Source of the DNA: an uncultured Methanosarcinales archaeon
GTDB taxonomy: Archaea; Nanobdellota; Nanobdellia; Woesearchaeales; ARS49
DNA: 64,000 nucleotides
Direction of reading: 5' to 3'
Assembly: GCA_964637115.1 (NCBI GenBank)
Contig: CAZWVL010000002.1
Location: forward strand, 64,001-128,000
In this document: positions 12,875 through 29,198 of the stretch, piece after piece
Position numbering within the stretch: position 1 is the first letter of the stretch
How the letters are laid out: each line of letters starts with the position of its first letter
Program-made: the position numbers and the translations under genes
The notes under the pieces: generated by a model
Told to the model about the DNA's origin: nothing
Database searches by the model: none
What the model saw: the letters and a program-made list of their open reading frames with translations, nothing else

Positions 12875-13289
12875 GTTTTTTATCCCCCCGTTTTGCGGTG
12901 TGTGTTTTACTCCCCCCTGGTAACAGATAAAAATTAAATATAGGGAGCACTAACTGCTATCCAGAAGGTGTTGTAATCGCGCCAACGATTTTAACATCTA
13001 GTTTAACAGAACAAATACATTATACGAACGATGCGTCCAAGTCGTCGCCAAACGATTTGAACACGCCAAAACCATATACCAACTTTCCGCCAAGAAAGTT
13101 ATTAATTTTTCTTTCAGCTTTATGGCATTTATAAACATTGCTATGAAGGAAACTATGTATTGCAGTGGTGAAGTATTGAAAAAAATTCTTTATTGACGAT
13201 AAAAAGCTCAGAAAAAAGTGTTGCTACTCTGATGTGAAAAATTCATTTTTCGTCACCTGTGGCAGATGATATCGACGAGAATTGAGAAA

Positions 13290-13922
13290 TTATTGCTGCA
13301 TTCTTCTCGCAAAACCTTTTACTAATTCCTTGCCTTTCTTGATGGCTTTTTGCACGTGCTCGCCATACCATTCATAATATGCAGCAAGGTCCTTTATCCT
13401 GTTGCCCCAGCCTTCAATGTAAGTAACATTTTCCATCGTGTAACGCAACGGCATAGGAACTTTCTCATCAGGATAACCAAGAGGAACAATTGCCTGAACA
13501 AAGACATCGTCAGGAATGTTGAAAATTCGTTTGATTGCCTCATCCTCAAATGCTCCAATCCAGCAGCTGCCCAAACCTTCAGCATGAGCTGCAAGCAGCA
13601 TGTTCTGGACAACAGCAGCACCATTCTGAATGCTGTACTTTTCACCTGACCTGCCATAAAAACGTTTGGTTCTTTCAGGCTCAGTGCAGACTATGATAAT
13701 AATGGGAGCGGTTGCAAGCCAATACTGCTCGACACAAGCTTTTGCCACTTCCTGCCGCATTTTTTCCTCTGTAACGAGAATGAATTTCCAATCCTGCAAG
13801 TTGCCCGCGCTTGGAGCAAACCTGCCTGCATCCAGAACATTGCCTACTTTTTCAAACTCAACAGGAATGTCCAAGAATTTACGAATACTCCTTCTCGTTG
13901 CAATGCACTCAAGCGCGTCCAT
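13290..13922 (-). CDS. Nitroreductase family flavoprotein
   Basis: RRSIRKF, APSAGNLQDW and QNMLLAAHAEGLGSCWIGAF. Confidence 0.92.
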   Translation of the reverse strand: MDALECIATRRSIRKFLDIPVEFEKVGNVLDAGRFAPSAGNLQDWKFILVTEEKMRQEVAKACVEQYWLATAPIIIIVCTEPERTKRFYGRSGEKYSIQNGAAVVQNMLLAAHAEGLGSCWIGAFEDEAIKRIFNIPDDVFVQAIVPLGYPDEKVPMPLRYTMENVTYIEGWGNRIKDLAAYYEWYGEHVQKAIKKGKELVKGFARRMQQ

Positions 13923-13988
13923 TATGTTCCTCTTTTTGCACGATAAACGGTTATACCATATTTAAACTTTTGTAGAAGAGAAAAAAAG

Positions 13989-14489
13989 CTACTTCTGCGC
14001 TGCCTTCATGGCAGCTTCTGCCTGCTTCATCATCTCGCTCATATCCTGGAATTGGACATCTGAGGGCGGAGTAAACATCGACTCGTCAAAGCTAGCAGTT
14101 TCGCACTTGACATTCTGCTGAGCAGCAACGATTTCTTCCTGCGTCTTTGGCCTTAGTTGCTGGCCTGCCTGTTGAGACAAACGCTTGACTTCTTCCATTT
14201 TCATCATCATACCTTCGGTGCCTTTCCACGTGTACATCGTGTCTTCTGTGTAGATGCCGTGAGCATCGGCAGGCAGGGTATCCATGCGCATCTTGCTGCC
14301 CTTCATATGGATAGTAACACGCTGGTCAGCTTGTTCAGAGACGCACTTAACCGGCTTGCCTAATTTCGTCGCCATAGCTATGTCAACAACTTCTGCTTTT
14401 GCTATTGGTTCAGGTGCTGTTTCCTGCTTCACTGCAGGCTTTGCACACGCGATCAAGAATATCATCAAAACGAAAATCTGCCATTTCAT
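13989..14489 (-). CDS. Hypothetical lipoprotein
   Basis: Lipobox FLIAC, a beta-rich core and the C-terminal FDESMFTPPSDVQFQD typical of LolA/DUF4412-like folds. Confidence 0.65.
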   Translation of the reverse strand: MKWQIFVLMIFLIACAKPAVKQETAPEPIAKAEVVDIAMATKLGKPVKCVSEQADQRVTIHMKGSKMRMDTLPADAHGIYTEDTMYTWKGTEGMMMKMEEVKRLSQQAGQQLRPKTQEEIVAAQQNVKCETASFDESMFTPPSDVQFQDMSEMMKQAEAAMKAAQK

Positions 14490-16258
14490 TATTGTTCACC
14501 TCTTCCACGCTGACTTCCAGCTAATACGGCAACATCTTCCACTGTATTAATATCTTCCGATGAACGATCAGTTCTGAGTTTGACTAATCTTGGAAAGCGA
14601 AGCGCAAAACCGGACGAATATGTCGGCGATTTCTGAATTTCCTCATAATCAACTTCTATGACAATTTCAGGGCGAACTTTTACTTCTTTTCCTTTTTCCT
14701 CGATAATCAAAGGCTGCAGGAGTTGTGTGAGCTGCTCGAAACTTACACCCTCCTCAACTTTTTCCTTAATGCCTGTGCCAACTCTGCCGATTTCAACAAA
14801 ACTATTTGTTTCAGGATCCCTGATTGCAATAACAAATGATGAAAGCCAGCTGCTTCGCTTGCCCTCACCCCATTCAGCACCAACAATAACTACTTCCAAA
14901 GTATCCATGGTAGGCTTGACCTTAACACCAAAGCCGACACGAGAACCAGGCTTATAGATGCCCTGCAAATTCTTTGCCATAACGCCTTCATTGCCCGCTT
15001 CCAGTGAATCTTTGTAAAATTTTTCAGCAACTGCATCATCATCAGTTATCACCTGTTCTGCCATCTTCAGCTCGTGCTTAAGTTCGGTTATAATCTTCTT
15101 CATAACATTTCTGCGTTCAATGAAAGGAGTTTTAAGAAGACTTCTGCCTTCGTAGAACAAGACATCAAACACGTTGACTTCAACCGGAAATTTCTCGGCA
15201 ATCTCCTGGATGTCATATTTTCTTTTGATACGCTGGCTGATACTTTGAAATGGCAGGTATTTTTTTGTCTTCTGGTCAATACCAACAACTTCGGCGTCAA
15301 TAATGAAGTTGTCTCCTTTAACCTGTTTTGCAATCTTTTTCACCACGTCAGGAAACTGGGCAGTCACATCTTCCAAGCGGCGCGTGTATAATGTCAACCT
15401 GCCATTATGCCTGTGAATTTGCAAACGGAAACCATCATACTTCTGCTCGAAAGCAGCAGGCTTGCCAACGGTTACAAATGCATCTGCAATGTTCTTTGCT
15501 TTCTGGAAAAGCATTACTTTCACAGGCTTGCCAGGCAGCAATGTGATATTTTGCAAGCCAGGTTCGCCTTTTTCTTTAGCAACTCTGGCCACATCAGCAA
15601 AATCATTGGCAACATCCAAAGCTTCCTGGACTAAAGTAACATATTTATCGTAATTAATTCTTTCTTCCTCAGAGAGCGTTAGATCATTTGTTGTCTTGTC
15701 ATATTTCACGCCTGCCTTGTCAGCAAAAAAAGCCCAGACAATCGCATCTCTTATTGTTCCTTCACCAAGGCCGACTCTCAATTCTCCTAAAATAGTGCGA
15801 ATAATATATTTTGATTCATTTGGCTTTGCACTAGTCATTAATTCTGCAACCAATTGAACTTTCCTGTCAACAGTGCCAGCACCTTCCATCTCTGAAATTT
15901 TTCTTAAGTTTTCAAAGACTTTCTGAACAGTTAATGGCTGGGAGAATAATGTGGCTTGGGATTTTTTTGTTGTCAATTCTGCTGCAACATTGCCTAAATC
16001 TCCTGTTGTTTTCCAGACAGCCTCAATTTTTTCCAAAGACGCGCCAGTAGCAGTTGAAATCGCTTTCAGCAGTAATCTAGAAGCCATTCCCAGCTCGCGC
16101 TGGTCCCAATTCGGAAACAATCTTCCTTGAACCAGCAGCAGGACTTTGTCAAGGTCATCTGCAGACTTCAAAAATTCTGAAAGTATGAATGTTTTTTCAA
16201 GCCGTTTTGTAGTAGCTTCAAGACGTTCGTATACCTCTACCAATACCTCGTACTTCAT
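14489..16258 (-). CDS. lig: ATP-dependent DNA ligase
   Basis: Motif I EQKYDGFRLQ, IIDAEV, VNVFDVL, EGVMAK, EVDYEEIQKSP and ALRFPR. Confidence 0.97.
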   Translation of the reverse strand: MKYEVLVEVYERLEATTKRLEKTFILSEFLKSADDLDKVLLLVQGRLFPNWDQRELGMASRLLLKAISTATGASLEKIEAVWKTTGDLGNVAAELTTKKSQATLFSQPLTVQKVFENLRKISEMEGAGTVDRKVQLVAELMTSAKPNESKYIIRTILGELRVGLGEGTIRDAIVWAFFADKAGVKYDKTTNDLTLSEEERINYDKYVTLVQEALDVANDFADVARVAKEKGEPGLQNITLLPGKPVKVMLFQKAKNIADAFVTVGKPAAFEQKYDGFRLQIHRHNGRLTLYTRRLEDVTAQFPDVVKKIAKQVKGDNFIIDAEVVGIDQKTKKYLPFQSISQRIKRKYDIQEIAEKFPVEVNVFDVLFYEGRSLLKTPFIERRNVMKKIITELKHELKMAEQVITDDDAVAEKFYKDSLEAGNEGVMAKNLQGIYKPGSRVGFGVKVKPTMDTLEVVIVGAEWGEGKRSSWLSSFVIAIRDPETNSFVEIGRVGTGIKEKVEEGVSFEQLTQLLQPLIIEEKGKEVKVRPEIVIEVDYEEIQKSPTYSSGFALRFPRLVKLRTDRSSEDINTVEDVAVLAGSQRGRGEQ

Positions 16259-16291
16259 TCTTTAGACGGAGAAAATGAGAGTATATATTGC

Positions 16292-17206
16292 TTACGCAGC
16301 AGCCTTGCCGCTGTAGCCACTGCCTTTGCCTGCACCAAAGTTGCCTTTGATGACGTTTCCGTTGTAGTTCTTGTCATTATACGTTGCTGCAGTTTTGCCC
16401 ATCTTTGGAGAAACGTAAGTTCCCAAACTCGCGTAATTTGAAGTAACTTTACCTGCCCTGTCGCTTGCAATTGCTGCCAAATCCTTATCGCCCCTTGCAG
16501 TAAAGTATTCTTTCAATGTATGCTCGACATCTAATTCAGCAGCAATATGGTCAAAGTACTTTCCTTTCTGAGAAGCGTGCACAAACTCGTGCGCCATCAC
16601 ATAGCTAATTGCGCGCTGTTTTGAAATGCCATAATTTCCTGCAAATGCGGATATTTTCTTGTCAAAGTTTTTGTCACCAATCAACGCTGCTTCATTTCCC
16701 TGAATTGCTAAAGCTGCAATCGCGCCTTCCAAATTTTGAGTTCCAATTTTGGTAATCTCATAAAAGTCACGATTTTTACTTTTCAAATGCGCATACAACT
16801 CTCTTCCCTCGCCTATCAAATACTGCTTTGCAATATCTGCAAAAGAGCCAGAATATTGTGATTTGAGGCTCTTGCCGCCAGATGCAGTGTCGCGCTTGAA
16901 ATTATAGCCGCTCTTTGGCCCAACTTTTTTCTCAACCTCATAACGCTGCTCTGCAATCCAGCCTTGCAGGTCATCACTCTGCTTTGCCATCCGTTCAAGC
17001 ACTTGATTGCCGGTTTCATACGTCTGAGAATCAGCACGATAGGCTCCGGATTCTCCTTTGTAAATAGAAGGATCAAGTTTTACTGTTGCTTTTTCAAAGA
17101 ATTCCTTATGCTGCTGTTTAGTCAGGGGTTTGTCTATCGAGAGAAAATCCCATTTGTTTTTTGTCTCTCTTACAATATCATCTACTGTTTGTGACTTTGC
17201 TGTCAT
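16292..17206 (-). CDS. Hypothetical protein with an HEXXH zinc-metallopeptidase motif
   Basis: YVMAHEFVHASQ with a downstream Glu (AAELD); no signal peptide. Confidence 0.55.
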   Translation of the reverse strand: MTAKSQTVDDIVRETKNKWDFLSIDKPLTKQQHKEFFEKATVKLDPSIYKGESGAYRADSQTYETGNQVLERMAKQSDDLQGWIAEQRYEVEKKVGPKSGYNFKRDTASGGKSLKSQYSGSFADIAKQYLIGEGRELYAHLKSKNRDFYEITKIGTQNLEGAIAALAIQGNEAALIGDKNFDKKISAFAGNYGISKQRAISYVMAHEFVHASQKGKYFDHIAAELDVEHTLKEYFTARGDKDLAAIASDRAGKVTSNYASLGTYVSPKMGKTAATYNDKNYNGNVIKGNFGAGKGSGYSGKAAA

Positions 17207-17315
17207 AATTTAACGTATTAAGACGTTGAACGATAAAAAGTTTGGTGACAAAAAAGTCAGTTTTTTAATTACATTTATAAATGGAAAACAACAGGATAAC
17301 CTAAAAAGTGTTGGT

Positions 17316-19076
17316 ATGGATCGGAAAGCTGAAGTTACGGTTTTGATAATGGTGCTGGTTGTAGCAGCTATAGCCGGCACGCTTGCATTAATAGGCAAAG
17401 AAAAAGAATCAGCTACGCCAACGGGCTACGTGCCTGCTCCCGAAGAACAAGCACTCGATTATTTGCCGGCTGAGCAACAAATACCTGAATATGATGTCGA
17501 AGAGCAACCAGCAAGTTCTGCCTCTACTCCACAAGAACAGAACCAAAAATCTGCACCAATCACCGGATATGCACCATTTGGAATAAACACTTGCGCTTCT
17601 CCCTGTATTACAAATTCAGACTGCAGTGTAGATGAATCGTGCAACAGCGGTTGTTGTGAACCAATACCTTGCGTCACAGATACAGATTGTCCTTATCCTT
17701 GTTCAACAGTTACTGGTTTCAGTCTTGCATTTTGCAATTCTTGTGTAGACGGTTTCTGCAAAGACCCGTGCAGTTGCGGCTTTAAGCTATGCACAGTTAA
17801 TGCAGATTGCCCGGCTGCTCAGGGCTTCACAGGTTGCGTTAGTGGGCAATGCACATGTGGAGTCAACGGTCCGTGTCCTGCGTCAGGTGTTGGTAATGCA
17901 CAAAAGTTATTTTGTATTGACAATGGTGGCACCTTTTGTCCACCATCAGTGGCAGCAAACTGCAATTGTCGCGATTGCAGTTCAGACATCTGTGGTACGA
18001 GTTGCCGATCTTCGATACCATGCAGCGTCAACAGCGACTGCCCCTTACGCAGGCCCGTTTGCTGTGATGGAGAATGTACTGCAGGCGATGCAACGCTTAG
18101 TGTTTGCCATAGGCAATGCAATACTGCGAATTTCCAATGCCAGCCTGGAGCATCACCTTCATGTCTAACTCCAACTCCGACTTCTACGCCGACGTCAACT
18201 CCGACGAGCACGCCAACTTCAACTCCGACTTCTACGCCGACTGAAACTCCTACTTCAACGCCTACTGAAACGCCTACGTCTACTCCGACAGAGACTCCTA
18301 CTTCGACACCTACTGAAACGCCTACGTCGACTCCTACAGAGACTCCGACAAACACTCCGACTGCTACCCCTACAAATACGCCGACTTTAACTCCTACGAA
18401 TACTCCTACTTCAACGCCGACAAATACTCCCACTTCAACTCCTACGAATACTCCTACTTCAACGCCAACAAGCACTCCGACTTCTACTCCGACTTCAACG
18501 CCGACAAGAACTCCGACTAGTACTCCAACTTCAACGCCGACAAGTACACCTACTTCAACACCAACTTCGACTCCTACTCCAGTTCCACCGCCAACTGTAG
18601 GAGCACCAGGTGCAGGTGGTGGAAGCAACAAATTTGTCACCTACAGTCCCAATTACTGCAGTTGTGTTACTCCTGAAGGCAGGTATGAACCAGAAGGATG
18701 TACTATTCGTCCAAGCATGCGCGGCAATCATCCGCTGTGTTCACGTGCATCGCCAGGAACAGCGGTGGCAGTTGCAGCAGAGCCTTCTAAGCCCAAGCCA
18801 CCACGGGAGCAAGCACCAGAACAAAATGTAGCGCCACCAGAACAAAATGTGGTATTGCCAGAAATTATAGAGCAGCTACCACCATACCGGCCGATTGAAA
18901 GTGCTGTGACAGAAGAAATAGATACGCAAGACTCATCTGTAACAGCAGCTTTGTTGATTATCCTGCTAATATTGGCTGCTCTTGGCTATTTTTACCGCCA
19001 AGAAATAATGGCGCTGTTTAAGCACAAGGCTTCAAAATCACACAAAAAAACAAGCGGTAAAGTAAAGACAAAGTAA
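17316..19076 (+). CDS. Cys-rich, Pro/Thr-repeat (mucin-like) membrane-anchored surface protein
   Basis: Start revised to MDRKAEV. It has an N-terminal hydrophobic helix, CxxxxDC repeats, a stalk of about 140 aa of PT(S/E/N)T, a second Cys module, and a C-terminal TM helix with a basic tail. Confidence 0.85.
18168..18596 (+). repeat. Degenerate 12-bp coding tandem repeat ([12 protein letters not shown])
   Basis: About 35 tetrapeptide units with synonymous codon variation and no unique spacers. Confidence 0.9.
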
Positions 19077-19103
19077 AAATCAATTAATATTTCCATCGAT
19101 GGC

Positions 19104-19111
19104 TTTATAAA
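19104..19111 (+). promoter_or_regulatory. TATA box of tRNA-Arg
   Basis: TTTATAAA ends 25 nt before the tRNA 5' end. Confidence 0.6.
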
Positions 19112-19135
19112 CCGTTTACTTCTCGACAATATTGT

Positions 19136-19209
19136 GCCCGCGTAGGCTAGCTTGGATAGACTGGAGGGTTGCGGTCCCTTCGACCTGGGTTCAAATCCCA
19201 GCGCGGGCG
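19136..19209 (+). tRNA. tRNA-Arg(GCG)
   Basis: Acceptor GCCCGCG/CGCGGGC, anticodon arm GAGGG-TT-GCG-GT-CCCTT, T-loop GGTTCAAATCC. Confidence 0.95.
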
Positions 19210-19304
19210 TAAATTCCCTTTTTGGGATTTGAACATCTGGAAGACTTCGTCTTCCAGCCCCTTCGTTTTCTGCGCAAACTTCAGGGAATCCCAGCGCGGG
19301 CGTA
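19194..19304 (+). repeat. 18-bp direct repeat of the tRNA-Arg 3' end (att-like) enclosing a 75-bp palindromic insert
   Basis: AATCCCAGCGCGGGCGTA occurs at 19194-19211 and 19287-19304. An inner perfect hairpin CTGGAAGAC-TTC-GTCTTCCAG lies at 19237-19257. Confidence 0.85.
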
Positions 19305-20330
19305 TTATTTTTTTCGTGCAATCAATTCCTCATAAATGCCTGGCGTAAATTGCCTCCAATAATGAACTTTGTCTTGAACAAATAAGTCGTAATAAACGAT
19401 ATAACTCTCAATTTCTGACTTAAATAATTCTATGCTTGAATTAAGCTCTTGCGGGTTTCTGGCATTCAGATAAAGAATCATGTCATAATCGCCGATCATT
19501 TTTCCTGCATAGAAAATATTTTGTAATTTGCTAAACGGTTTTTTCAGGATCTCAAGCGGTGTATCCTGCTCAACTCTTACAAGTAAATAATAAGTAATAA
19601 AGCCCTGCTTTGAATGATTAGGTATTCCACCAAAATTTAAGATTATTTTATTCTGAATAAGGCTGATTATTCTCTTTTTGACGGTATTTCTGTCAATTTT
19701 CAATTTTCTGCCAATGTCAATCAGTGATTCTTGGGGATTATCTGCTAAAAGCCTGAGAATTTCTATCTCTGCTTTTGTAGGCTCGTACTTCTCAAAGTCA
19801 GGATCAACGGGAAAATTTCTAGTTGCCAATACGCCGCTAAAAGAATGGTCCAGTTTCTTCTGAAATCTCGTCTTTAAGTCAAGCACAGGACTTAGTTGTG
19901 TAAATTCAAGATCTGAAAGATGGGTTAATATGAAATATTCTTTTATTTTGTTTTTACAGATTTTAAACAAGTCCTCTCTGATTTTGTTCAGATGGAATCC
20001 GTCTATTGCGTCAACAATGATCTGTAAATCATATCTTCCGATAAAAGAATTAATCCACATCACAAATTTATGTCTAGACAGATCATCATACAACTTCTGT
20101 TTGTCTTTAATACCTGCTTTAAACTTAATGAGAATGTGATAGCGCGTAAACCCCAATCTTCTGGCATCAACAAACAGGACGTATTGTTTGATAAACTCTG
20201 ATTTTTCCAAGTGCTTGATTTTATAGGAAATTGTGTCTTTTGAAACTTTGAGAGCCTGCGCTATCGTTGTATGTGAAACTCTGCAATTTTGAGCAAATAT
20301 CTCCATAATCTGCAGATCCTTTTTGTCCAT
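19305..20330 (-). CDS. Tandem (double) Lrp/AsnC family transcriptional regulator
   Basis: Two HTH+RAM units: MDKKDLQIMEIFAQNCRVSHTTIAQALKVSKDTISYKIKHLEK...GRYDL and EIEILRLLADNPQESLIDIGRKLKIDRNTVKKRI...GDYDM. Confidence 0.9.
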   Translation of the reverse strand: MDKKDLQIMEIFAQNCRVSHTTIAQALKVSKDTISYKIKHLEKSEFIKQYVLFVDARRLGFTRYHILIKFKAGIKDKQKLYDDLSRHKFVMWINSFIGRYDLQIIVDAIDGFHLNKIREDLFKICKNKIKEYFILTHLSDLEFTQLSPVLDLKTRFQKKLDHSFSGVLATRNFPVDPDFEKYEPTKAEIEILRLLADNPQESLIDIGRKLKIDRNTVKKRIISLIQNKIILNFGGIPNHSKQGFITYYLLVRVEQDTPLEILKKPFSKLQNIFYAGKMIGDYDMILYLNARNPQELNSSIELFKSEIESYIVYYDLFVQDKVHYWRQFTPGIYEELIARKK

Positions 20331-20439
20331 TTTTCAGAATAATGCTGTATTTCTATATAAATATTACACATTTTTCTTAAAAATGAATAGCAGATTTATT
20401 ATATTGTTTTATTCGTATTCTTTACTAGTGGGTGGTGAA

Positions 20440-21108
20440 ATGAATATTGAACAAAATCTAACCGGAACTGCAGTCAAGAACGGTTATGAAATTCTCCAAG
20501 ACAGAGGACTGGCAGTCGTTGGTATGAGTATCGGGAATAGTTATTTCAAAAAAGACCGAATAGATGCTTTACTCAAATATTGCACAAGAGTATTTTCTCA
20601 AGTTAGAATCCTGATTGCTGATAAGCCAATGGAACATACCTACAGAGCAATGGGTTATTCTTCTGCAAATGCAGGAACAAAAGCAAGATTAAAGGGAAAT
20701 GCATTGCAGAATCATAGTCAAAGAAGTATTGATGTGATTTTGGGAGGAGATATCAGATTAATTCAGTGGGAAAATGATATTCATCCCCGTGAAGCATATC
20801 AAAGAGAACTGCGAAGATTTGAAGAATTATATGGTGATGCTGATGGTTTTAAACAAGAAATAAGAGACACCACAAGAACAGTTTTGGATGGAAAACTAAA
20901 GCAGGGAGTAAAAATTGAGAGCGCTATTGATGAGGGAATTCATTATTTGTTAAAAGAGCTGGCATTTGTGTCCGCAAGTCCTGAAATACTTGGAACTCAA
21001 AAGGTGGCATATGTTTATCATACTCGGTGGAAAATATATGAAGATTTCGTTGACGGAAAATTTGACGGCCAAAAGAGAAGAGACTTGGGTTTTGTAGTTA
21101 TTAAATAG
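20440..21108 (+). CDS. tRNA-dependent cyclodipeptide synthase (CDPS), NYH subfamily
   Basis: Start revised to MNIEQ, with the SD GGTGGTG upstream; 222 aa. Motifs GMSIGNSYF (S30, N33), HYLLKEL (Y169, E173) and YVYH (Y193, H194) have the spacing of AlbC S37/N40/Y178/E182/Y202/H203. Confidence 0.88.
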   Translation: MNIEQNLTGTAVKNGYEILQDRGLAVVGMSIGNSYFKKDRIDALLKYCTRVFSQVRILIADKPMEHTYRAMGYSSANAGTKARLKGNALQNHSQRSIDVILGGDIRLIQWENDIHPREAYQRELRRFEELYGDADGFKQEIRDTTRTVLDGKLKQGVKIESAIDEGIHYLLKELAFVSASPEILGTQKVAYVYHTRWKIYEDFVDGKFDGQKRRDLGFVVIK

Positions 21109-21257
21109 AATTCCTTTGACATGGATCTAACGTCCAGATTAACCCTTCACAATCCATATTAAAAGCGCTTTCTTTGGAGATATCAATACCGACCATTTAC
21201 GAAGGAGGTGATTACCCAAAATAAAAACAAACGGAGGTGGTTAATGCCAACATTCTT

Positions 21258-21288
21258 CTGGTGGGCAGATGCCCACCGGAGCTTTTTT
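21258..21288 (+). terminator. Hairpin with U-tract
   Basis: CTGGTGGGC-AGAT-GCCCACCGG is followed by AGCTTTTTT. Confidence 0.6.
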
Positions 21289-21391
21289 ATAATTGCTCTT
21301 TTCCACAAATTCCTGAAGACAAAACATTCTTTATCACTCTTCAGTAGTTAAAATGGAAAGCTTTATAAATGGTGGAAAGAGAAGCAAAACT

Positions 21392-22582
21392 ATGGCGTCA
21401 GAACCAAATGAACAGAAAATAGTCATCACGCTCGACCAGTTACTTCTTAACGTAAGAGAGAGGATAGGAGAACTAAAGGACGGGCTAATTTGCGCGATTT
21501 TAGAAAAAGTATCACAGGGTATCACTGATTTTAAAGGGAAAGAAGCATTTTTGGTGAAGGAATACTTTCCTGCAGGCTATCTGCTGAACTCGGCAAACTA
21601 CTTTAGTGAAACTCTTGAAGATGTCAAACGTGATCCGCTGATAGAGGGACATGGTAATTCTGAACTTAGAGGAAGAATAATGAGTCAGATTGATGAAATG
21701 AAAAATGACGCTTCTAAGATTTTAAAAGATATGACTTGCACTGGTCTGGTTGATTTGAGTGCGAAATCCAGACGCCTCTATAAGGAAATGCTTCCAATAG
21801 TTGAGGAGAGCAGACAGATAGATCACAGAACAGGCCTCAAGATTTCTGACTCCCTCACGAACATATTATTCGCAAGTTTCAAGGATTACATTTCACAGCC
21901 TAACAAACACGTTTCAATAGTATATCTTGATATGAACAACTTCAAGCTTTACAACGACATTGCCAAATCAGAACAAGCAGACGTTGCCATTCAGCAGACA
22001 GCAGGACTCCTCAAGCAACTGCCGGAGGACGTTGTTGTAACAAGAAAAAATGACAAGAGAGGAGACGAATTCGTGTTGTTCATGCATAAAGATTATGACG
22101 GGGCAAGCAGAATAATGCATAAAATGTTTATCCCTCAGTTTGATGAAAAACTTCCAGCCATGATTAGGACAGCAATGGAAAAAAGCGCGCAAAAATACGA
22201 AGATAATTTTGACAAACTGGGAGGAAAATTAACATTCGCGATAGGAATAAGTTCAACTTTGCTGCAAGACGATATGACAATATTTGCAAGAGCAAAAAAA
22301 AGATTCGGGCAATCAAATGAAGAACTTTCGAGAGGTCTCGACAACTTTACTGCGTGCAGTCCAGCAGATTGGCATGATAAATACGATGGCCTGAGCCCCG
22401 GAGTTAGAAAAGATATAATTACGGTACTTAAAGGAACATTGCAAGCCGAAGCAGAAGCCGCAGCACACTGGGCAAAAAACCTGTCAAAAGACCGGCATAA
22501 CAAGGAATTTTATGAAAAAACAGTTCTGCGGGTATATGATCCAAAAGTTTTAGAATCAACTTATACTTATATTGGGCGCTGA
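21392..22582 (+). CDS. GGDEF-domain (diguanylate-cyclase-like) protein, variant RGDEF
   Basis: Start revised to MASEP, 23 nt after TTTATAAA at 21362-21369. Motifs DHRTGL, LDMNNFKLYND, AD, RGDEFVL, LTFAIGIS and AEAAAHWAK appear in GGDEF order. Confidence 0.75.
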   Translation: MASEPNEQKIVITLDQLLLNVRERIGELKDGLICAILEKVSQGITDFKGKEAFLVKEYFPAGYLLNSANYFSETLEDVKRDPLIEGHGNSELRGRIMSQIDEMKNDASKILKDMTCTGLVDLSAKSRRLYKEMLPIVEESRQIDHRTGLKISDSLTNILFASFKDYISQPNKHVSIVYLDMNNFKLYNDIAKSEQADVAIQQTAGLLKQLPEDVVVTRKNDKRGDEFVLFMHKDYDGASRIMHKMFIPQFDEKLPAMIRTAMEKSAQKYEDNFDKLGGKLTFAIGISSTLLQDDMTIFARAKKRFGQSNEELSRGLDNFTACSPADWHDKYDGLSPGVRKDIITVLKGTLQAEAEAAAHWAKNLSKDRHNKEFYEKTVLRVYDPKVLESTYTYIGR

Positions 22583-22998
22583 ACTTTCTTTCGAAGATCT
22601 ACGTGTTTTGTCTCTTCAGCTTCCATTGTAATCCGAATTCCTGCTATTGAATTATCGTGATCGATAACATACGTGTTGCCGTCAGAATGCTTGAAAACAG
22701 GATCTTTGAATTGTCCAAGCAAACTTGCCGCTTTTTCTCCAGCCGGCTTCCTTAAATCAAGCGTAAGACAATGATAAGAAATCCCATCCTTATCAATGAT
22801 GCCAGCACCAATCAGCTGGCCGCTGGTAACGTCCAGCGCACGATTCTGAACATAAACTTCTGGATGAGGGGCATATTGGGAGCCTGCAAAATCCTCTTTT
22901 AATCTTTTGAGAGCAATCAGAATATGAAAGTGGTCTTGCAGGCGTTCGGCTTCGTCCAATGTTGCCGTTATCTCATCAACCAAATCACGCTCTGGCAT
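22567..22998 (-). CDS. Hypothetical protein
   Basis: 143-aa ORF with a TATA-like TTTAAA upstream on the minus strand. Confidence 0.6.
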   Translation of the reverse strand: MPERDLVDEITATLDEAERLQDHFHILIALKRLKEDFAGSQYAPHPEVYVQNRALDVTSGQLIGAGIIDKDGISYHCLTLDLRKPAGEKAASLLGQFKDPVFKHSDGNTYVIDHDNSIAGIRITMEAEETKHVDLRKKVQRPI

Positions 22999-23024
22999 AT
23001 GTTATCACTAGGTAGTTGTTCTAT

Positions 23025-24491
23025 TTAAAGGTTTCCTTCACCGACCTGATTTTTTACAGATTTTGCAACTGCTGCGCCAAGAATTTCAGACAATTTTTCC
23101 ATTGGAACCTTTCTGATGTCGCCCAAATCCTTGATTCCAGAACGAAACAGTTTTCTTGCACGGACACGGCCAATCCCTTCCAAACGGATTAATGGCAAGA
23201 GTTCCTCTTTCACCCCATATTTCAAGCGCAAGCGCACTTTAGTAATCTCAGAGAGCAACTTTTGATACTGCATCAAACGGGCAAGCTCATTGCAGGCATA
23301 CAACAGCCAGTCAGCATTGTCAATCTTTGCCCTTGTTTCACCAGGCCTGCTGTCATATCTTTCCAGAACCCATTCTTCATCCTTTTCATCAATCCAATCT
23401 TCCAGCATCAACGCAGTTTTAACGCTGTCAAGCCAATCTTCATACTCAGGTTCAAACATACTGGGCTCGTGCTCAAGAAGATAAGGCTCAAGCAACGCAT
23501 ACTTTTGCGTAACATCATCATATTCTTTCTGCCTAACTCGCAGCAAAGGACGCATTTCGAGTGTATTAGAGACTGCGTGCAAGAAAGAAATAGATTTCAA
23601 AGTAATATGAGTTGCGCGTTCCAAGCGGTTCAGCAAGTTGAAAGCAGTTAGAGGGTCGAGATAAAGCTCTGCAACTCTTTTTCCAAGCATGGTTGCCCTG
23701 TAGCCTTCCTGCACTTCCTGCAAGAATCCCCATTCAACAAGGAGTTTCAAAGTTCTGTCAATAATGCGCTCCATTCTGGCCAAATCTTTGTACTGGTATG
23801 CCCAGAAAGTCTTGCTGAAAAAATCAAGAATAGACTCATTCGAGGAAATAATGCGGGAAGAAATTAATGACAACAAGTATGTTCGCAAGACGGGCTCGAC
23901 TGCCAACTTGCTGTAAATATCTTCTGGAATTCCCTTTAGATAATGCTCAGTGATGTATTCCTTATCTGTTTCTGTCTGTGCGAGCACAATTGTTTCACCA
24001 AAAGTATCATATTTCGGCCTGCCAGCCCTACCGGCCATCTGAAGAAATTCCAATACAGGAATATGCGCCATGCCATGCATGCCGAATCTTTTTACATCGC
24101 GGATAATTGAACGGAAGGCAGGCAAGTCAACTCCTGCTGCTAAAGTTGGCGTACAGCAGATAATTTTGATAAGTCCAGAACGGAAAGCATCCTCAATAAG
24201 TTCCTTCTGCTTTGAATGCAAGCCGGCATGATGAAAAGCAATGCCGTGCTTTGCACACAACGCCAAACGCTCGCACTGCTTTGTTGGTTTTGAGAGAACG
24301 GTGAGCACGGATTCGGATAATTTGTCAAGCTCGGCACTCTTCAAAGGTGCCTTCTTGCCAATGTCTTCAGCCACTTTTTCAGCAGAACGCTTGGCGTTCA
24401 CAAACAGCAATGCCTGCTTCTTGATTTCAATGGTGTCAAGAGCAAGATTAATGACAGGATCAGAGGTTTTTTCGAGGATTTTCATGTTCAT
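23025..24491 (-). CDS. hel308: Hel308/Ski2-like helicase, C-terminal half only (no RecA1 domain)
   Basis: LLFVNAKRSAE, GIAFHHAGL, CTPTLAAGVDLPA, QMAGRAGRPKYD and the HhH LEGIGRVRARKLF are present. Walker A and DExH are absent, and an in-frame TAA lies 11 codons upstream of the ATG. Confidence 0.85.
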   Translation of the reverse strand: MNMKILEKTSDPVINLALDTIEIKKQALLFVNAKRSAEKVAEDIGKKAPLKSAELDKLSESVLTVLSKPTKQCERLALCAKHGIAFHHAGLHSKQKELIEDAFRSGLIKIICCTPTLAAGVDLPAFRSIIRDVKRFGMHGMAHIPVLEFLQMAGRAGRPKYDTFGETIVLAQTETDKEYITEHYLKGIPEDIYSKLAVEPVLRTYLLSLISSRIISSNESILDFFSKTFWAYQYKDLARMERIIDRTLKLLVEWGFLQEVQEGYRATMLGKRVAELYLDPLTAFNLLNRLERATHITLKSISFLHAVSNTLEMRPLLRVRQKEYDDVTQKYALLEPYLLEHEPSMFEPEYEDWLDSVKTALMLEDWIDEKDEEWVLERYDSRPGETRAKIDNADWLLYACNELARLMQYQKLLSEITKVRLRLKYGVKEELLPLIRLEGIGRVRARKLFRSGIKDLGDIRKVPMEKLSEILGAAVAKSVKNQVGEGNL

Positions 24492-24562
24492 AGCAACGCC
24501 TTCAGCAGTTCTTAATATTTACCATAATGTTTAAAAAGCGTTCTTCTCCCACGAACAGATAC

Positions 24563-24636
24563 GAGCCCGTAGCTTAGCCTGGTGGAGCACTCGACTGATA
24601 ATCGAGAGGTCCGGAGTTCGAATCTCCGCGGGCTCA
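24563..24636 (+). tRNA. tRNA-Ile(GAT)
   Basis: Acceptor GAGCCCG/CGGGCTC, anticodon arm CTCGA-CT-GAT-AA-TCGAG, T-loop AGTTCGAATCT. Confidence 0.95.
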
Positions 24637-24698
24637 TTATTTCTTTTTGCCGCAACGCTTTTAAAGGGCTACCTTTTTATAGACGACAGGTGGGTGAT

Positions 24699-25769
24699 GT
24701 GGCATTTACAGAGATAGCACACGCGTATGACCAAAGCGTCATTGACCGATTTAATGTAGCATTCTCTAGATACTTCAAGCGCACGCTTGACAGGGGCAAG
24801 CCAGATGTTCAAGGACTTGAACACCTTCTAACTATTCCCAAAGACGCTTCAGCTGTTTTAGTATCAATCCACAAAAGCCACCTTGACTATGTAGTGATTC
24901 CTTGGGTGCTCCAGAACAATTTTCTTCCGCCAAGACTCAATGGACCCAGACCTCTTGCAATAGCGGCAGGCGATAATTTGTGCAAGCGCATTGCAAAATG
25001 GGATTTTGGCAAGATCTTGCGCAAGTGCGGAGCATACAAAATAATCAGGAATCCCGAGCCCGGCAAAATCATTGAAACCACAGGAACACTGCTAAAATAC
25101 ACAGGCGAGCTCATGGTGGCAGGAGACTGGTTACTGAATTTCCCAGAACGAAGCAGGTCATACACAGGCGAAATACTTCCTTTTGATCCGGCCGCCATAG
25201 GCATACTCCAAAAGTCAGAAAGACGAGCAGGCAGGCCGGTTGTGTACGTGCCTGTCGCAGTCTCGTACGAACGCGTGCCCGAAGACAGATGGTTCCCAAC
25301 ATTTGCCAAATATAAGTCAAGCGCTTCGCTCATTGGAAAACTCATTTATTATATGCTTGATTGGCCGTTAATTTTGGCGCAGCCGTCTTTAGGAATATGG
25401 AACAAGCCGATAGGGCAAATATCAGTGCGCTTTGGACAACCAATTACCAGCTCAGGAGACAAGGAAACATTTGCCAAGAAACTGGAAGATGAATGCAAAT
25501 CATTGGTAACTGCGTTTTCCACAAACATACTCTGCGCTGCTTTGCTTAAAGGTGGTCCCTTTGAATTAGCTGACAACCTTTTGGAAATTTATGGCGCGCT
25601 AGAAAAGCGCGGAGTTTTGGCAGAAAATATGGGGTTTAGAGAAGCAATCGACCGAGGCTTTCGCTTCCTTGACGCCCCATTCAGAAGATTTTTCAACCAC
25701 GCATTCAGCTTCAGAAAAGACATAGCGGAGTATTATCGGAACTGCATTGCGCATTATTTAAAACCCTAA
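24699..25769 (+). CDS. Glycerolipid acyltransferase, PlsB/PlsC (LPLAT) superfamily
   Basis: Start revised to the GTG after the tRNA. Block I HKSHLDY (HxxxxD), AAGDNL, GAYKIIR, block III FPERSRSYTG and block IV VPVAVSYERVPE. Confidence 0.82.
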   Translation: MAFTEIAHAYDQSVIDRFNVAFSRYFKRTLDRGKPDVQGLEHLLTIPKDASAVLVSIHKSHLDYVVIPWVLQNNFLPPRLNGPRPLAIAAGDNLCKRIAKWDFGKILRKCGAYKIIRNPEPGKIIETTGTLLKYTGELMVAGDWLLNFPERSRSYTGEILPFDPAAIGILQKSERRAGRPVVYVPVAVSYERVPEDRWFPTFAKYKSSASLIGKLIYYMLDWPLILAQPSLGIWNKPIGQISVRFGQPITSSGDKETFAKKLEDECKSLVTAFSTNILCAALLKGGPFELADNLLEIYGALEKRGVLAENMGFREAIDRGFRFLDAPFRRFFNHAFSFRKDIAEYYRNCIAHYLKP

Positions 25770-28012
25770 CAAGTTTCGCCAAATACGTCCTTCACCACAC
25801 CAAGAATTACTTTTCTTAGTAATTCAACAATATCATTTGTATTATATGCATTATTTCCATCCTGATCAAGGTCCACGACACATTCACCTGCAGAAGGAGC
25901 AATGCATGAAGTTGTGTTAGTATTATAAGCTGTCAAGAGCAAAATCATATCACCGACATCAGCGTTTGTGTTATTGTTTAAATCGATATTTGAAATGCAC
26001 GGTGATGAAATGACTTTCACATCCACGCTTGCGTTGGCTGAACTGCCGTTGACAGTCGAAACTGCGGTAAGCCCGTGCATTCCTTCTGACAGATTGACCG
26101 TAATGCCAGAGCCTGTGCCAAGACTGCCGGAAACATTTGAAAACCAGCTGATAGTGCCGGCCGGAGAACTATTTGCAATAAGATTTGTGCCGTTAGAAAT
26201 AAGCACTGAATTTTGCCCAGGACTTAGAATGCTGACGGAAATATTGACGGGAGAATAAATAACGTTGAGTATAATGCTTGTTGTTGCAGATTCATTACCC
26301 TCAGTAACTGTTGCGGCAATTGTGTGGCTGTCAACAGACAAGGTTACGTCAACGCTTGCACCTTCTCCAAGAATTCCTGAGACGTTTGAAGTCCAGACAA
26401 CAGTAAAGTTATCTGAATTGTTGCCAGCAATTAAGGCAGTCAATGTAGTGCTGGAATAAACAGTAGCATTGTCAGCTGGAGCAGAAATGCTAATGTTCAA
26501 AGGTTCATCGGGAGCGGGAGGAGAATTGATTATGATGCTAACATTTGCAGATATAGTCTGATTTCCTTCTGCAGCAGTTGCAATAATAAAGTGAGCTCCA
26601 GGTGTCAGGTTAACAGCAATGCTCTCGCCCACTCCAAGCAGTCCAGAAACATTTGATGTCCATTCCACAGTTGCAGGTGATGAATTGCCAGACACGTTTG
26701 CAGACAGCAAAACTTCTCCTGTTATTGAAGCATTTTCCAAAGGAGAAATAATTGAAATTTCCAATTGCGCAGATGATGCATTATAGCCAAGATATTCAAG
26801 AGCTGCAAGGATATTAATGCGCGGATAACCGCTAATGTTCTTTCCAGTAGCCATAAGAGCTTCCCTGATGTCGGTAGGAGTTAAGGACTGGCTAGTCAAT
26901 CTAGCATATTGCTGCAGCAATGCAACAGCGCCAGAAACGTGCGGAGTTGACATCGAAGTGCCTGTCAATGAGCCGTATTTGTTCGGTGCTTGCGTGCTCA
27001 CGATAGATACACCTGGTGCAAGAACATCAAGCAAAGGACCACGATTTGAAAATGACGCCATAATGTCGGATTTATCTGTTGCACCAACACTGATCGCATT
27101 CGGCGAACAACCAGGATAATTAACTCCGTTAGCGTAACCATTATTGCCGGATGCAAACACACTAGTAATGCCCGCATTGTAAGCTGCATCAATTCCGGAA
27201 TCAAAGTAAGTCGGGCAGTTAGACTGGTTAACATAATTTCCTCCATCACCAATACTGCCGCTGATAACAGTAATGTTATAATCATCCTTGTGAGCAATGC
27301 AAAAGTCAATGCCTGCAACTATATCGGACAACGTGCAGGTATTCGAACAAATCTTTACTGAAACAATATTTACTCCAGGAGCAACTCCTACATACGTGCC
27401 ATTTGCACCGATAGTTCCGGAGACGTGAGTGCCATGGCTTGAAGAATGGACGTCAGTTGCAACATCATCCTCGGGAAGACCATTTGCACAACAATTTGAT
27501 GAACAATAGCACTTTTGCGCAACCACCCTGTTTTGGAATGCAGGATGAGAAGCTTGAATGCCGGTATCAAGCACACAAGCAGCAACGCCTTGGCCGGTCA
27601 GCGACGTGCCATTGATGACAATTGAATTAACAGCAGTTGCATTAATCAAAGGAGCGCTTTCTGACAAAGTCAATGAGAATGCAATGTCGGGGTACACTGC
27701 CTCGACTAATGGATGGTTTTTCAGCTTCTCAACACCCTCATCTGTTGCTTCGACGACCAAAATTGGCAGAGTTTCAAGCGTGCGTTCAGCCTGGACATCG
27801 CCTGTCTGGTCAACGCCTAAAACACTTTCCAGAAGACTTGGACTGTTAACGTCGTCCAGCACTTCCTGCTTTGAAATCTCTTCATTGAGAATTACTACCA
27901 CGCGCTCTGTTGGAATATCATATACTCTGCCAGTAATTGAAGGAGAACTGAAAAATAGCAATGTACCAAATGCAAACAAAACTGCAATACAAAGCATTAT
28001 TCTTGAATCCAT
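25766..28012 (-). CDS. Secreted S8 subtilisin-like protease with propeptide, Ig-like repeats and a C-terminal dockerin-like domain
   Basis: Catalytic triad VLDTG, SHGTHVSG and GTSMSTPHVSG. Three ISI.SP..N...W.SNVSG.LG.G repeats follow, then paired Ca-loops DLNNNTNADVGD-MILLL and DLDQDGNNAYNTND-IVELL. Confidence 0.92.
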   Translation of the reverse strand: MDSRIMLCIAVLFAFGTLLFFSSPSITGRVYDIPTERVVVILNEEISKQEVLDDVNSPSLLESVLGVDQTGDVQAERTLETLPILVVEATDEGVEKLKNHPLVEAVYPDIAFSLTLSESAPLINATAVNSIVINGTSLTGQGVAACVLDTGIQASHPAFQNRVVAQKCYCSSNCCANGLPEDDVATDVHSSSHGTHVSGTIGANGTYVGVAPGVNIVSVKICSNTCTLSDIVAGIDFCIAHKDDYNITVISGSIGDGGNYVNQSNCPTYFDSGIDAAYNAGITSVFASGNNGYANGVNYPGCSPNAISVGATDKSDIMASFSNRGPLLDVLAPGVSIVSTQAPNKYGSLTGTSMSTPHVSGAVALLQQYARLTSQSLTPTDIREALMATGKNISGYPRINILAALEYLGYNASSAQLEISIISPLENASITGEVLLSANVSGNSSPATVEWTSNVSGLLGVGESIAVNLTPGAHFIIATAAEGNQTISANVSIIINSPPAPDEPLNISISAPADNATVYSSTTLTALIAGNNSDNFTVVWTSNVSGILGEGASVDVTLSVDSHTIAATVTEGNESATTSIILNVIYSPVNISVSILSPGQNSVLISNGTNLIANSSPAGTISWFSNVSGSLGTGSGITVNLSEGMHGLTAVSTVNGSSANASVDVKVISSPCISNIDLNNNTNADVGDMILLLTAYNTNTTSCIAPSAGECVVDLDQDGNNAYNTNDIVELLRKVILGVVKDVFGETC

Positions 28013-28101
28013 AGATGTCCTCTTTTAATATCAGAAACACAAGTTCGTTTTTAATAATTGCGATGATAAGTTTTAAATAGAAAGCAACCCGCAATTTCAA
28101 C

Positions 28102-28896
28102 ATGAGGTGTGCATTATTGTTATTTGTTCTTGTCTCAGCAGTTGCTGTTCTCGCTGACACTTTTACATTGCAACCAGACACATCAACGATACAAACTCCT
28201 GGAAACATAATAATGAACTTAAATGCAAGCAACACACAGCCAATCTATGGACTGGAGCTCACAGTCGAAGATGAACCTGAGCGCGCCGTATTCTCGCACA
28301 TAGAAATAACCAGCAGGACAACAGGTGCAATCGTAACAAGCGCAACGCAAGGAAACGACATAGTCAAAGTAGCATTAATTTTGAGCGGAACTGGAAACGG
28401 CATAGCTCCAGGCAACGGTAGCATACTCAAAATCCACTATTCAGCCACGGGCTCAGGAAAAGTGAATTTTGACCCGTCCAACCTGAAAGTGTACAGCAAG
28501 AACGGAACGGCTATTGGCGGAAGCAGTATAGACGACACAGAAGTAACTCTTCAGCCAGGAAGCACATCAAGGAGTTCAAGCAGTTCTGGAAGTTCTGGCG
28601 GCGGAGGAAGCGGGAGCAGCGGAAAAAGTTCCGGCAAGTCAAGCTCAACTGCCAGCACCTCAGCAAACACACAACTTCCATTCCAGTTCACAGAATCAAA
28701 GCCATCAAAAGAAAACCTGGCGCCAACACTGCCTCCAGAAGTAATAGAAACAACAGCAAATGCAGAAATAGCACCAATACCACAGCAAATACCAGAACCT
28801 GGGAAAACATTCTGGCCGTGGATAATAGGAGCACTAGTTTCTCTTGCGGGTGGAGCGCTCCTTGTGTACGCGTACAAAAAACAGTCAAAAATATAG
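28102..28896 (+). CDS. Membrane-anchored cohesin-like protein
   Basis: Signal peptide, a beta domain of about 135 aa (IMNLNASNTQPIYGLELTVEDEP...IAPGNGSILKIHYSAT), a Ser/Gly then Pro/Glu linker, and a C-terminal TM helix with KK tail. Confidence 0.62.
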   Translation: MRCALLLFVLVSAVAVLADTFTLQPDTSTIQTPGNIIMNLNASNTQPIYGLELTVEDEPERAVFSHIEITSRTTGAIVTSATQGNDIVKVALILSGTGNGIAPGNGSILKIHYSATGSGKVNFDPSNLKVYSKNGTAIGGSSIDDTEVTLQPGSTSRSSSSSGSSGGGGSGSSGKSSGKSSSTASTSANTQLPFQFTESKPSKENLAPTLPPEVIETTANAEIAPIPQQIPEPGKTFWPWIIGALVSLAGGALLVYAYKKQSKI

Positions 28897-28898
28897 AA

Positions 28899-29198
28899 TT
28901 AACGAACCAACACTGTCTGCACCAAAGGCACGCCAACAAAATTGCTACCCTGCTGGCACACACTCAGCAATGTTCCCCATTCATTGGTATAAACCTGCTG
29001 TGGGTAAACAGGCTGCAAACCAGCATAAATGCATGCCTCGTTCGGCTGCATTTGCGCGCGCTGAGGACCATAATACCATCTGCCACCGCCACTAGCATAA
29101 TATTGACCGGTCAAAGTGTTCTGCAACTGGATAATGAGGCCTCCGATAGCAACAAGTGCTATTAAGCCAAGAAAAATGACTCCGAGTTTTTGCACCAT
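28899..29198 (-). CDS. Small membrane-anchored protein
   Basis: N-terminal TM helix, LTGQY motif and two Cys. Confidence 0.6.
   Translation of the reverse strand: MVQKLGVIFLGLIALVAIGGLIIQLQNTLTGQYYASGGGRWYYGPQRAQMQPNEACIYAGLQPVYPQQVYTNEWGTLLSVCQQGSNFVGVPLVQTVLVR

Follow-up and report, generated by a model that had tools for sequence, protein, structure and literature searches.

Cyclodipeptide synthases (CDPSs) are enzymes that use two aminoacyl-tRNAs in a ping-pong reaction passing through an acyl-serine intermediate (PMC5816076, PMC3105412). Most known members of the family are bacterial, and a census published in 2018 contained a single archaeal sequence, assigned to the XYP subfamily (PMC5816076). 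Diketopiperazines have been reported from a haloarchaeon grown in culture, and no gene was attributed to them (PMC4609331). In the pulcherrimin locus of Bacillus, a winged-helix regulator of the MarR type, PchR (YvmB), adjoins yvmC-cypX, binds the promoter and represses it (PMC7731078, citing Randazzo 2016). The sequence analysed here, referred to as the window, is a stretch of 64,000 nucleotides (positions 64,001 to 128,000 of contig CAZWVL010000002.1, GenBank assembly GCA_964637115.1) from an uncultured archaeon of the order Woesearchaeales, within the DPANN group (Diapherotrites, Parvarchaeota, Aenigmarchaeota, Nanoarchaeota, Nanohaloarchaeota and related lineages). The assembly comprises 1.27 Mb in 27 contigs and is 98% complete. 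Positions 19305-21123 of the window carry a CDPS gene and, divergent from it, the gene of a fused tandem Lrp/AsnC protein that is termed Lrp2 below. The segment is probably a self-contained cassette of two genes that belongs to DPANN archaea and was acquired horizontally.

The open reading frame (ORF) at 20440-21108 on the plus strand encodes a protein of 222 amino acids. An earlier note, made from the letters of the window alone, had read it as a CDPS of the NYH subfamily, and both profile and structure searches bore this out. The ORF scored 121 bits with PF16715 (cut-off 27) and 147.7 bits with TIGR04539 (cut-off 45). The best solved relative was YvmC from Bacillus licheniformis, with an E-value of 1.6e-17 for the single sequence and 1.1e-24 with a profile of the clade, and the clade profile matched AlbC with an E-value of 3e-18. 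In the profile alignment, in which the numbering of the AlbC chain is the published one, AlbC residues S37, N40, Y178, E182, Y202 and H203 correspond to S30, N33, Y169, E173, Y193 and H194, and the residues typical of the NYH subfamily (N40, Y202 and H203 in AlbC) are therefore present as N33, Y193 and H194. The catalytic residues are invariant or near-invariant among the relatives; the exceptions are locus L109, with cysteine in place of the serine and tyrosine in place of the histidine, and locus L097, which lacks the asparagine and the histidine. The AlphaFold2 model had a predicted local distance difference test (pLDDT) score of 94.9 and the Rossmann fold resembling class-I aminoacyl-tRNA synthetases. 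When it was compared with the PDB using Foldseek the best matches were all CDPSs, with template modelling (TM) scores of 0.84-0.86 to YvmC and 0.82-0.89 across the top set of YvmC, Shae-CDPS, BtCDPS and AlbC-S37C, followed by Rv2275 and wild-type AlbC at 0.71-0.78. The gene caller offered an alternative start at TTG 20404, giving 234 amino acids; ATG 20440, the start used in the earlier note, was preferred because the homologues are 221-225 amino acids long and a Shine-Dalgarno-like motif, GGTGGTGA, lies 5' of it at 20430-20437. By family, residues and fold this ORF is a genuine, intact NYH-type cyclodipeptide synthase, and its intact residues suggest that it would share the chemistry of the family.

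The substrate pockets were defined by AlbC positions 33, 35, 65, 67, 119, 185, 186 and 200 for P1 and 152, 155, 156, 159, 204, 206 and 207 for P2 (PMC5816076). The corresponding P1 residues are V26, G28, L58, A60, W110 or E111, F176, V177 and Y191, the counterpart of AlbC 119 being ambiguous by one residue since the sequence alignment gives E111 and the invariant residue is W110; the P2 residues are T144, T147, V148, G151, T195, W197 and K198. No exact match was found between this pocket and the published motifs of the specificity groups (cLL, cYY, cWW, cCC, cPX and others; PMC5816076). The nearest motifs, with the AlbC-119 position ambiguous, were that of YvmC and xGxPW(F/L)x(F/Y), which is found in enzymes that accept Pro or Leu. 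The JGI name for the protein, cyclo(L-tyrosyl-L-tyrosyl) synthase, was set aside as an automatic label to which the pocket residues give no support. Across the whole clade formed by enzymes of DPANN archaea and of the bacterial Candidate Phyla Radiation (CPR) the P1 positions are near-constant and the P2 positions vary.

The gene for Lrp2 occupies 19305-20330 on the minus strand and encodes 341 amino acids. The AsnC-type helix-turn-helix profile PF13404 matched it with 53 bits over two stretches, at residues 1-42 and about 185-226. The AlphaFold2 model (pLDDT 95.4, predicted TM score 0.92) consists of two successive units, each a winged helix-turn-helix (wHTH) followed by a RAM domain, connected by a linker, ordered and about 40 residues long; this agrees with the divergent tandem Lrp/AsnC partner described in the earlier note. 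Each half of the model contains a three-helix bundle, and the strands and helices of the RAM fold (beta-alpha-beta-beta-alpha-beta) are found at 47-144 and 230-325. The RAM profile PF01037 itself scored only 21.5 bits, under its cut-off of 25, and an NCBIfam LysM-like model scored 84.9 bits, under its cut-off of 180. The structures closest to the halves were the archaeal Lrp and feast/famine regulatory protein (FFRP) factors PH0061, PH0140 and FL11, with 20-24% identity and TM scores of 0.80-0.84; no solved transcription factor of the fused double-Lrp form was found in the PDB searches. Conservation is strong along the entire chain of Lrp2, including the linker between the halves. The best-supported role, judged from sequence and model, would be that of a dedicated transcription factor acting on the control region that it shares with the synthase gene. 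This archaeal order commonly encodes fused tandem Lrp/AsnC proteins of about 320-370 amino acids with 22-30% identity to Lrp2 (G021, G018, G028, G038 and other genomes), and tandem Lrp/AsnC matches reach eight per genome; the fused architecture is therefore a habit of the lineage.

The shared control region lies between the starts of the two genes at 20331-20439. It has the length of 109 bp and the AT-rich composition expected from the earlier reading (GC 0.229), and in nine loci the spacer measures 98-115 bp with a mean column identity of 70% (alignment A2). Two TATA-like blocks stand out in this alignment. Box A (TATATAAATATTAC, 20354-20367, minus strand) is near-invariant and is located 24 nt from the ATG of Lrp2, a distance from which a leaderless Lrp2 mRNA is predicted. 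Box B (TTTATTATATTG, 20395-20406, plus strand) is invariant and precedes the ATG of the CDPS by approximately 40 nt. Judged by where they lie and by their sequence, both boxes are probably archaeal TATA boxes, and the conservation of such TATA-like boxes across loci suggests an adaptation of the cassette to archaeal transcription. A weak imperfect palindrome of 32 nt in this genome was considered as an operator and rejected, as it is not conserved at the other loci.

The divergent Lrp2-CDPS pair was found at about 15 distinct DPANN loci, at which the flanking genes are unrelated and different every time (head-to-head loci: L002, L004/L005, L006, L007, L009, L010, L011, L012, a Logan contig, L095, L097, L106 and L109). 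The orthologues of Lrp2 located beside a CDPS elsewhere are 47-95% identical to it. The phylum was sampled evenly with 401 genomes, of which 16, from many families, had a CDPS above the cut-off and seven had an Lrp2 orthologue (at least 64% identity); in all seven the orthologue was adjacent to a CDPS. Among the 40 nearest relatives only G021 contains either gene, and it contains both. Two genomes flagged as unpublished, G010 and G023, enter the counts for relatives and for the genus; the junction evidence given below comes from G011 and G003, which are not flagged. The survey of Lrp-CDPS synteny across DPANN genomes that had been proposed thus revealed a conserved module. Identity between Lrp2 proteins exceeded identity between the neighbouring CDPSs in 66 of 66 pairs of loci drawn from 12 distinct loci, with means of 66% and 43%, and the two divergences were correlated (Spearman 0.74 over the 12 loci, the pairs being non-independent). 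The extremes relative to this genome were L109, with 74% for Lrp2 and 37% for the CDPS, and L097, with 47% and 27%.

Comparison of the flanks over the module loci revealed no conserved tailoring enzyme beside the module, and there is no exporter or importer inside it. This confirms the absence of an adjacent tailoring enzyme remarked on earlier, since the flanks differ at each locus and the GGDEF-like gene that follows the CDPS here belongs to the genus backbone. As no tailoring enzyme travels with the synthase, the cyclodipeptide is probably left unmodified. Viral contigs of IMG/VR were scanned for Lrp2 and for the CDPS and contained no relatives of either. Prediction of a complex between the CDPS and Lrp2 (alignments A1 and A3) returned a score of 0.00 in a run without controls, a result that counts neither way.

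The site of insertion was defined by comparison with genomes of the same genus. When positions 13000-29000 were searched using blastn against 14 other genomes of the genus, both flanks matched at 67-95% identity, and none of the 14 gave a match to 19305-21120. The module adjoins a tRNA-Arg gene with anticodon GCG, an integration hot spot, at 19135-19210 on the plus strand (ARAGORN; 88-95% identity in same-genus genomes). The 3' end of this tRNA gene forms the first copy of an exact 18-nt, att-like direct repeat (19194-19211, plus strand), which is followed by a hairpin-rich spacer of 75 nt (19212-19286) and by the second copy (19287-19304, plus strand), the left border of the inserted module; the number of chance matches expected is zero. 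The earlier note had placed the block immediately after a duplicated tRNA-Arg 3' end, and this held in so far as the exact second copy abuts the stop codon of Lrp2. The copies do not bracket the module, however, since they enclose only the 75 nt of spacer and the CDPS block lies outside them. In the empty site of G011 the tRNA-Arg gene is followed by six bases and then by the sequence of 21124 onward, with neither spacer nor repeat. G003 lacks the module as well; there the tRNA-Arg gene is followed by a longer spacer (about 140 nt), then by another copy of the tRNA 3' end, and then by the right flank that G011 also has. As G003 has the repeat and spacer without the module, the 18-nt repeat and 75-nt spacer constitute an older scar shared with that genome, and they are read as the likely remnant of an earlier element that predated the module. 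The G003 assembly is broken at the tRNA-Arg duplication, where contigs C8 and C5 (L121 and L122) overlap at the spacer.

Separate from this older scar, the module itself is an insert of about 1.82 kb that fits exactly between repeat copy 2 and the old right flank. It contains little beyond the two genes. On the left the repeat directly adjoins the stop codon of Lrp2, and on the right only 15 nt (21109-21123) follow the CDPS stop codon; from about 21124 onward the sequence is again homologous to the empty sites of G011 and G003. The GC content of the module is 0.343 compared with a window mean of 0.429 (sd 0.019), the minimum of 622 sliding windows of 1.8 kb, which confirms its AT-rich, foreign character. 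No third copy of the att-like repeat was found to the right of the CDPS at up to three mismatches. The tyrosine recombinase profile PF00589 had no match in the whole 98%-complete genome (G000), while it matched 14 of 14 control genomes, archaea included. The module thus has neither the repeat flanking its cargo nor the integrase that characterise a tRNA-targeted integrative element. What remains at the site is a scar beside an insertion and no intact element, and the vehicle is gone. None of the other module loci has a tRNA gene beside it, except for a tRNA-Thr 1.1 kb downstream in L009, so tRNA targeting is no general property of the module.

In G021, which belongs to the same family, the module is at a different place, beside the orthologue of a gene that lies 21 kb away in the window. 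Lrp2 of this relative is 66% identical to the protein described here, compared with 83% and 81% for those of G305 and G401 from another family. These similarities follow the pattern that repeated lateral transfer within the order would produce. The named relatives of the thermosome encoded in the window are solely Candidatus Woesearchaeota and Nanoarchaeia, and for each of the two module genes the close relatives that bear a name come from metagenome-assembled genomes (MAGs) of DPANN archaea. Together with the empty sites in G011 and G003, this agrees with the earlier proposal that a reduced DPANN archaeon had acquired the block.

Close homologues of the CDPS (44-71% identity) were found in DPANN MAGs only. 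They are labelled Woesearchaeota, Nanoarchaeota, Micrarchaeota, unclassified 'archaeon' and, in one case, Methanosarcinales, a bin that genome search placed in the window's own order. For both genes, all relatives of at least 44% identity are in DPANN archaeal MAGs. The next tier, at 33-42% identity, consists of fusion proteins of 450-500 amino acids with an SBP_bac_3 domain at the C-terminal end of the CDPS, from CPR/Patescibacteria, Melainabacteria, Bdellovibrionota and a few others. In a phylogeny with bacterial and archaeal members, as had been recommended earlier, the fusions form a clade of 52 rows with a Shimodaira-Hasegawa-like approximate likelihood ratio (SH-aLRT) of 100; the stand-alone archaeal enzymes form an unresolved grade around it when actinomycete CDPSs are used as the outgroup, and no donor can therefore be named. 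The fusion loci are L014-L067 (for example L014, L019 and L035; proteins P0076, P0091 and P0092), and one fusion is located in a bin labelled Woesearchaeota (L032). None of the fusion loci carries Lrp2, and no characterised member of the DPANN/CPR clade or of the fusions was found. Both branches appear to tie the CDPS to a domain of an amino-acid-binding type, the RAM domain in archaea and a periplasmic-binding fold in bacteria.

It is considered probable that the segment is a horizontally acquired DPANN cassette in which a CDPS is accompanied by its own transcription factor, Lrp2, acting on the shared region. The synthase would take two aminoacyl-tRNAs, form an aminoacyl-enzyme on Ser30 and then a dipeptidyl-enzyme, and release a cyclodipeptide (2,5-diketopiperazine). 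Lrp2 would behave as a single-chain pseudo-dimer of two Lrp/AsnC units, bind the shared region of about 100-115 bp between the two archaeal TATA boxes and set the transcription of both the synthase gene and its own through a small ligand in the RAM domains, which may be an amino acid or the cyclodipeptide itself. Enzyme activity, product identity, DNA binding, the ligand and a role as signal or antagonist towards the host or neighbours are what we infer from the two proteins and their arrangement. Several observations weigh against this reading. A receptor would be expected to diversify with its synthase, yet Lrp2 remains conserved while the CDPS shifts strongly. Two Lrp2 orthologues have no CDPS neighbour (L094, 71% identity; L096, 58%), Lrp2 is missing from nine genomes of the phylum sample that have a CDPS, and at the Micrarchaeota locus L008 no Lrp2 is found within the 388 nt before the contig ends. 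No clear conserved palindromic operator was found between Boxes A and B, and over its whole length the fold of Lrp2 is most like that of an enzyme, NirDL (4ch7, TM 0.57-0.62). The two orthologues that lack a CDPS indicate that Lrp2 can serve other targets, and they may represent replacement of the target under the same regulator. The partner in L094 (3543-3905) is an ORF of 120 amino acids with no Pfam match, and in L096 (2675-3991) the divergent partner is a transporter of the major facilitator superfamily. The CDPS genomes without Lrp2 imply in turn that the enzyme has no need of it; the DPANN CDPSs that lack Lrp2 have no conserved partner, their neighbours being OmdA, an AlaE-like protein, a Mur ligase, thymidylate synthase, transglutaminase and GatD.

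Within the reading of a CDPS with its own transcription factor there is a special case in which Lrp2 would sense the cyclodipeptide made by its partner and activate the divergent promoters, giving autoinduction of the LuxI/LuxR kind among DPANN cells or with a host. RAM domains of Lrp/FFRP proteins are established to bind amino acids and their derivatives, and PDB titles show complexes with L-Ile, L-Leu, L-Phe and Gln. Fusion into a pseudo-dimer makes the RAM-RAM interface asymmetric, the cassette moves as a unit, and the head-to-head pairing is strict and its control region conserved, all of which would suit a synthase and its receptor. Against this, co-diversification of ligand and receptor is not apparent, as Lrp2 is far more conserved than the CDPS and the P2 pocket varies; Lrp2 also occurs without an adjacent CDPS, and the module has no exporter or importer. 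A conserved Lrp2 beside a fast-changing synthase would sooner suggest a common ligand, for example an amino acid, or strong constraints imposed by DNA or oligomerisation, and the special case is regarded as unlikely. Quite unlikely too is the wider proposal that the pair is a portable two-component device for chemical communication, with the synthase emitting a cyclodipeptide and Lrp2 as the dedicated receptor and autoregulator. If it were true, symbiotic nano-archaea would use the device to gauge how dense their own population is or to communicate with their hosts, and the CDPS-SBP fusions of the CPR would be its bacterial counterpart. An altogether different role, in which Lrp2 is an enzyme or accessory subunit of Lrp fold, comparable to NirDL or AhbAB, and modifies, binds or passes on the cyclodipeptide or tRNA substrates, was weighed because the only solved structural analogue of its full length is a fused siroheme decarboxylase, because its conservation over the whole chain and linker is unusually strong, and because it is more conserved than the CDPS. 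The likeness to NirDL is architectural only, since identity is 11% and the siroheme decarboxylase profiles AhbB (29.2 bits, cut-off 125) and AhbA (25.8 bits, cut-off 140) score far under their cut-offs. Both helix-turn-helix stretches match the AsnC-type DNA-binding profile, the halves are much closer to bona fide transcription factors, and tandem Lrp paralogues are common in the order, which makes an enzymatic role highly improbable. An artefact, whether a mis-binned or chimeric bacterial fragment or a CDPS that is a dead relic, would be in line with a GC content 8.6 points under the window mean and with the bacterial origin of most known CDPSs (PMC5816076). The 1.8-kb block nevertheless lies within one contig whose flanks are collinear with same-genus genomes, its relatives at the identity level given above are DPANN archaea for both genes, the archaeal TATA-like boxes are conserved across loci, and the CDPS ORF is intact with all catalytic residues. 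The mis-assembled bacterial fragment that the earlier note had raised as grounds for abandoning its reading accordingly finds no support in the synteny or in the archaeal close relatives, and an artefact of either kind is scarcely credible. The preferred reading thus remains a transferred DPANN cassette of a CDPS and its transcription factor.

With genomes of about 1 Mb, archaea of the DPANN group are without most biosynthetic pathways and are believed to live on other cells. To our knowledge almost nothing has been established about their chemical interaction with hosts. The cassette would spend charged tRNA on a diffusible cyclic dipeptide and bring its own sensor or regulator. Having spread horizontally among lineages of the Woesearchaeota type, it is among the few concrete and cloneable handles on the chemistry between DPANN archaea and their hosts. 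Because the module is small, two genes and a control region of 109 bp, tests of it in E. coli as well as in vitro are feasible. In CDPS enzymology the cassette draws attention to a large clade (DPANN, CPR and a few other bacterial phyla) with a conserved P1 pocket and two couplings to a domain of an amino-acid-binding type.

The genes neighbouring the cassette were also inspected. Directly 3' of the CDPS, a gene at 21353-22582 on the plus strand encodes 409 amino acids with a weak GGDEF match (PF00990, 28.8 bits; motif RGDEF). This gene and the ORF at 22567-22998 were rejected as members of the module because they are missing at the other module loci and belong to the genus backbone, G011 having 79% nucleotide identity over 21262-25469. 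The ORF of 488 amino acids at 23025-24491 on the minus strand was read as the C-terminal half of Hel308, starting at RecA domain 2. It is kept across the genus at 73-81% nucleotide identity, so that the truncated form appears normal for the genus and does not reflect a local break; a tRNA-Ile gene follows. On the other side, 17226-19076 on the plus strand encodes a Cys-rich protein of 616 amino acids with a long (T/S)PT repeat tract, and its repeat DNA matches contigs C3, C6 and C13 of the same genome, suggesting a family of repeat-bearing surface proteins.

When the module was compared with known systems, the best solved relative of the synthase, YvmC (cyclo-Leu-Leu synthase, PDB 3oqh), was found to share its NYH subfamily and catalytic residues at approximately 24% identity. 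The pocket residues, as read from the alignment, are LGLA-F-FFL / MAAGRWK in YvmC and VGLA-(W110 or E111)-FVY / TTVGTWK in the CDPS. Unlike the module, the yvmC locus of Bacillus contains the P450 tailoring enzyme CypX, the exporter YvmA and a regulator of the MarR type. The reference NYH enzyme, AlbC from Streptomyces noursei (PDB 3oqv), has the same fold and catalytic counterparts at approximately 20% identity, but it has a partner oxidase, AlbAB, in its biosynthetic cluster and there is none such here. The bacterial CDPS-SBP_bac_3 fusions have a near-identical P1 pocket, (I/V)G(M/L)(A/P)-W-F(L/V)Y, and likewise carry a domain of an amino-acid-binding type; they differ in being single proteins with a domain of the periplasmic-binding-protein type and no separate DNA-binding partner. 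Each half of Lrp2 has the wHTH and RAM arrangement of the archaeal Lrp/FFRP proteins PH0061, PH0140, FL11 (PH1519), ST1022 and LysM. Those proteins are dimerising chains of about 150 amino acids, whereas Lrp2 is a covalent tandem with a conserved linker of 40 residues. The top structural match over the whole length, NirDL, is similarly a fused tandem of Lrp/AsnC-like units in one chain, but in addition to the low identity and profile scores that separate it and AhbAB from Lrp2, there are no haem-pathway genes near Lrp2. A full-text search, with subscription journals outside its coverage, found no publication that describes a CDPS with an Lrp/AsnC regulator as its partner, or the DPANN and CPR clades of CDPSs. 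The suggestion that this is an undescribed system may hold, within that coverage, for the pairing but not for the enzyme family, which is well known. The family and its chemistry are well established and the mechanism is known; the novelty of the locus is its context.

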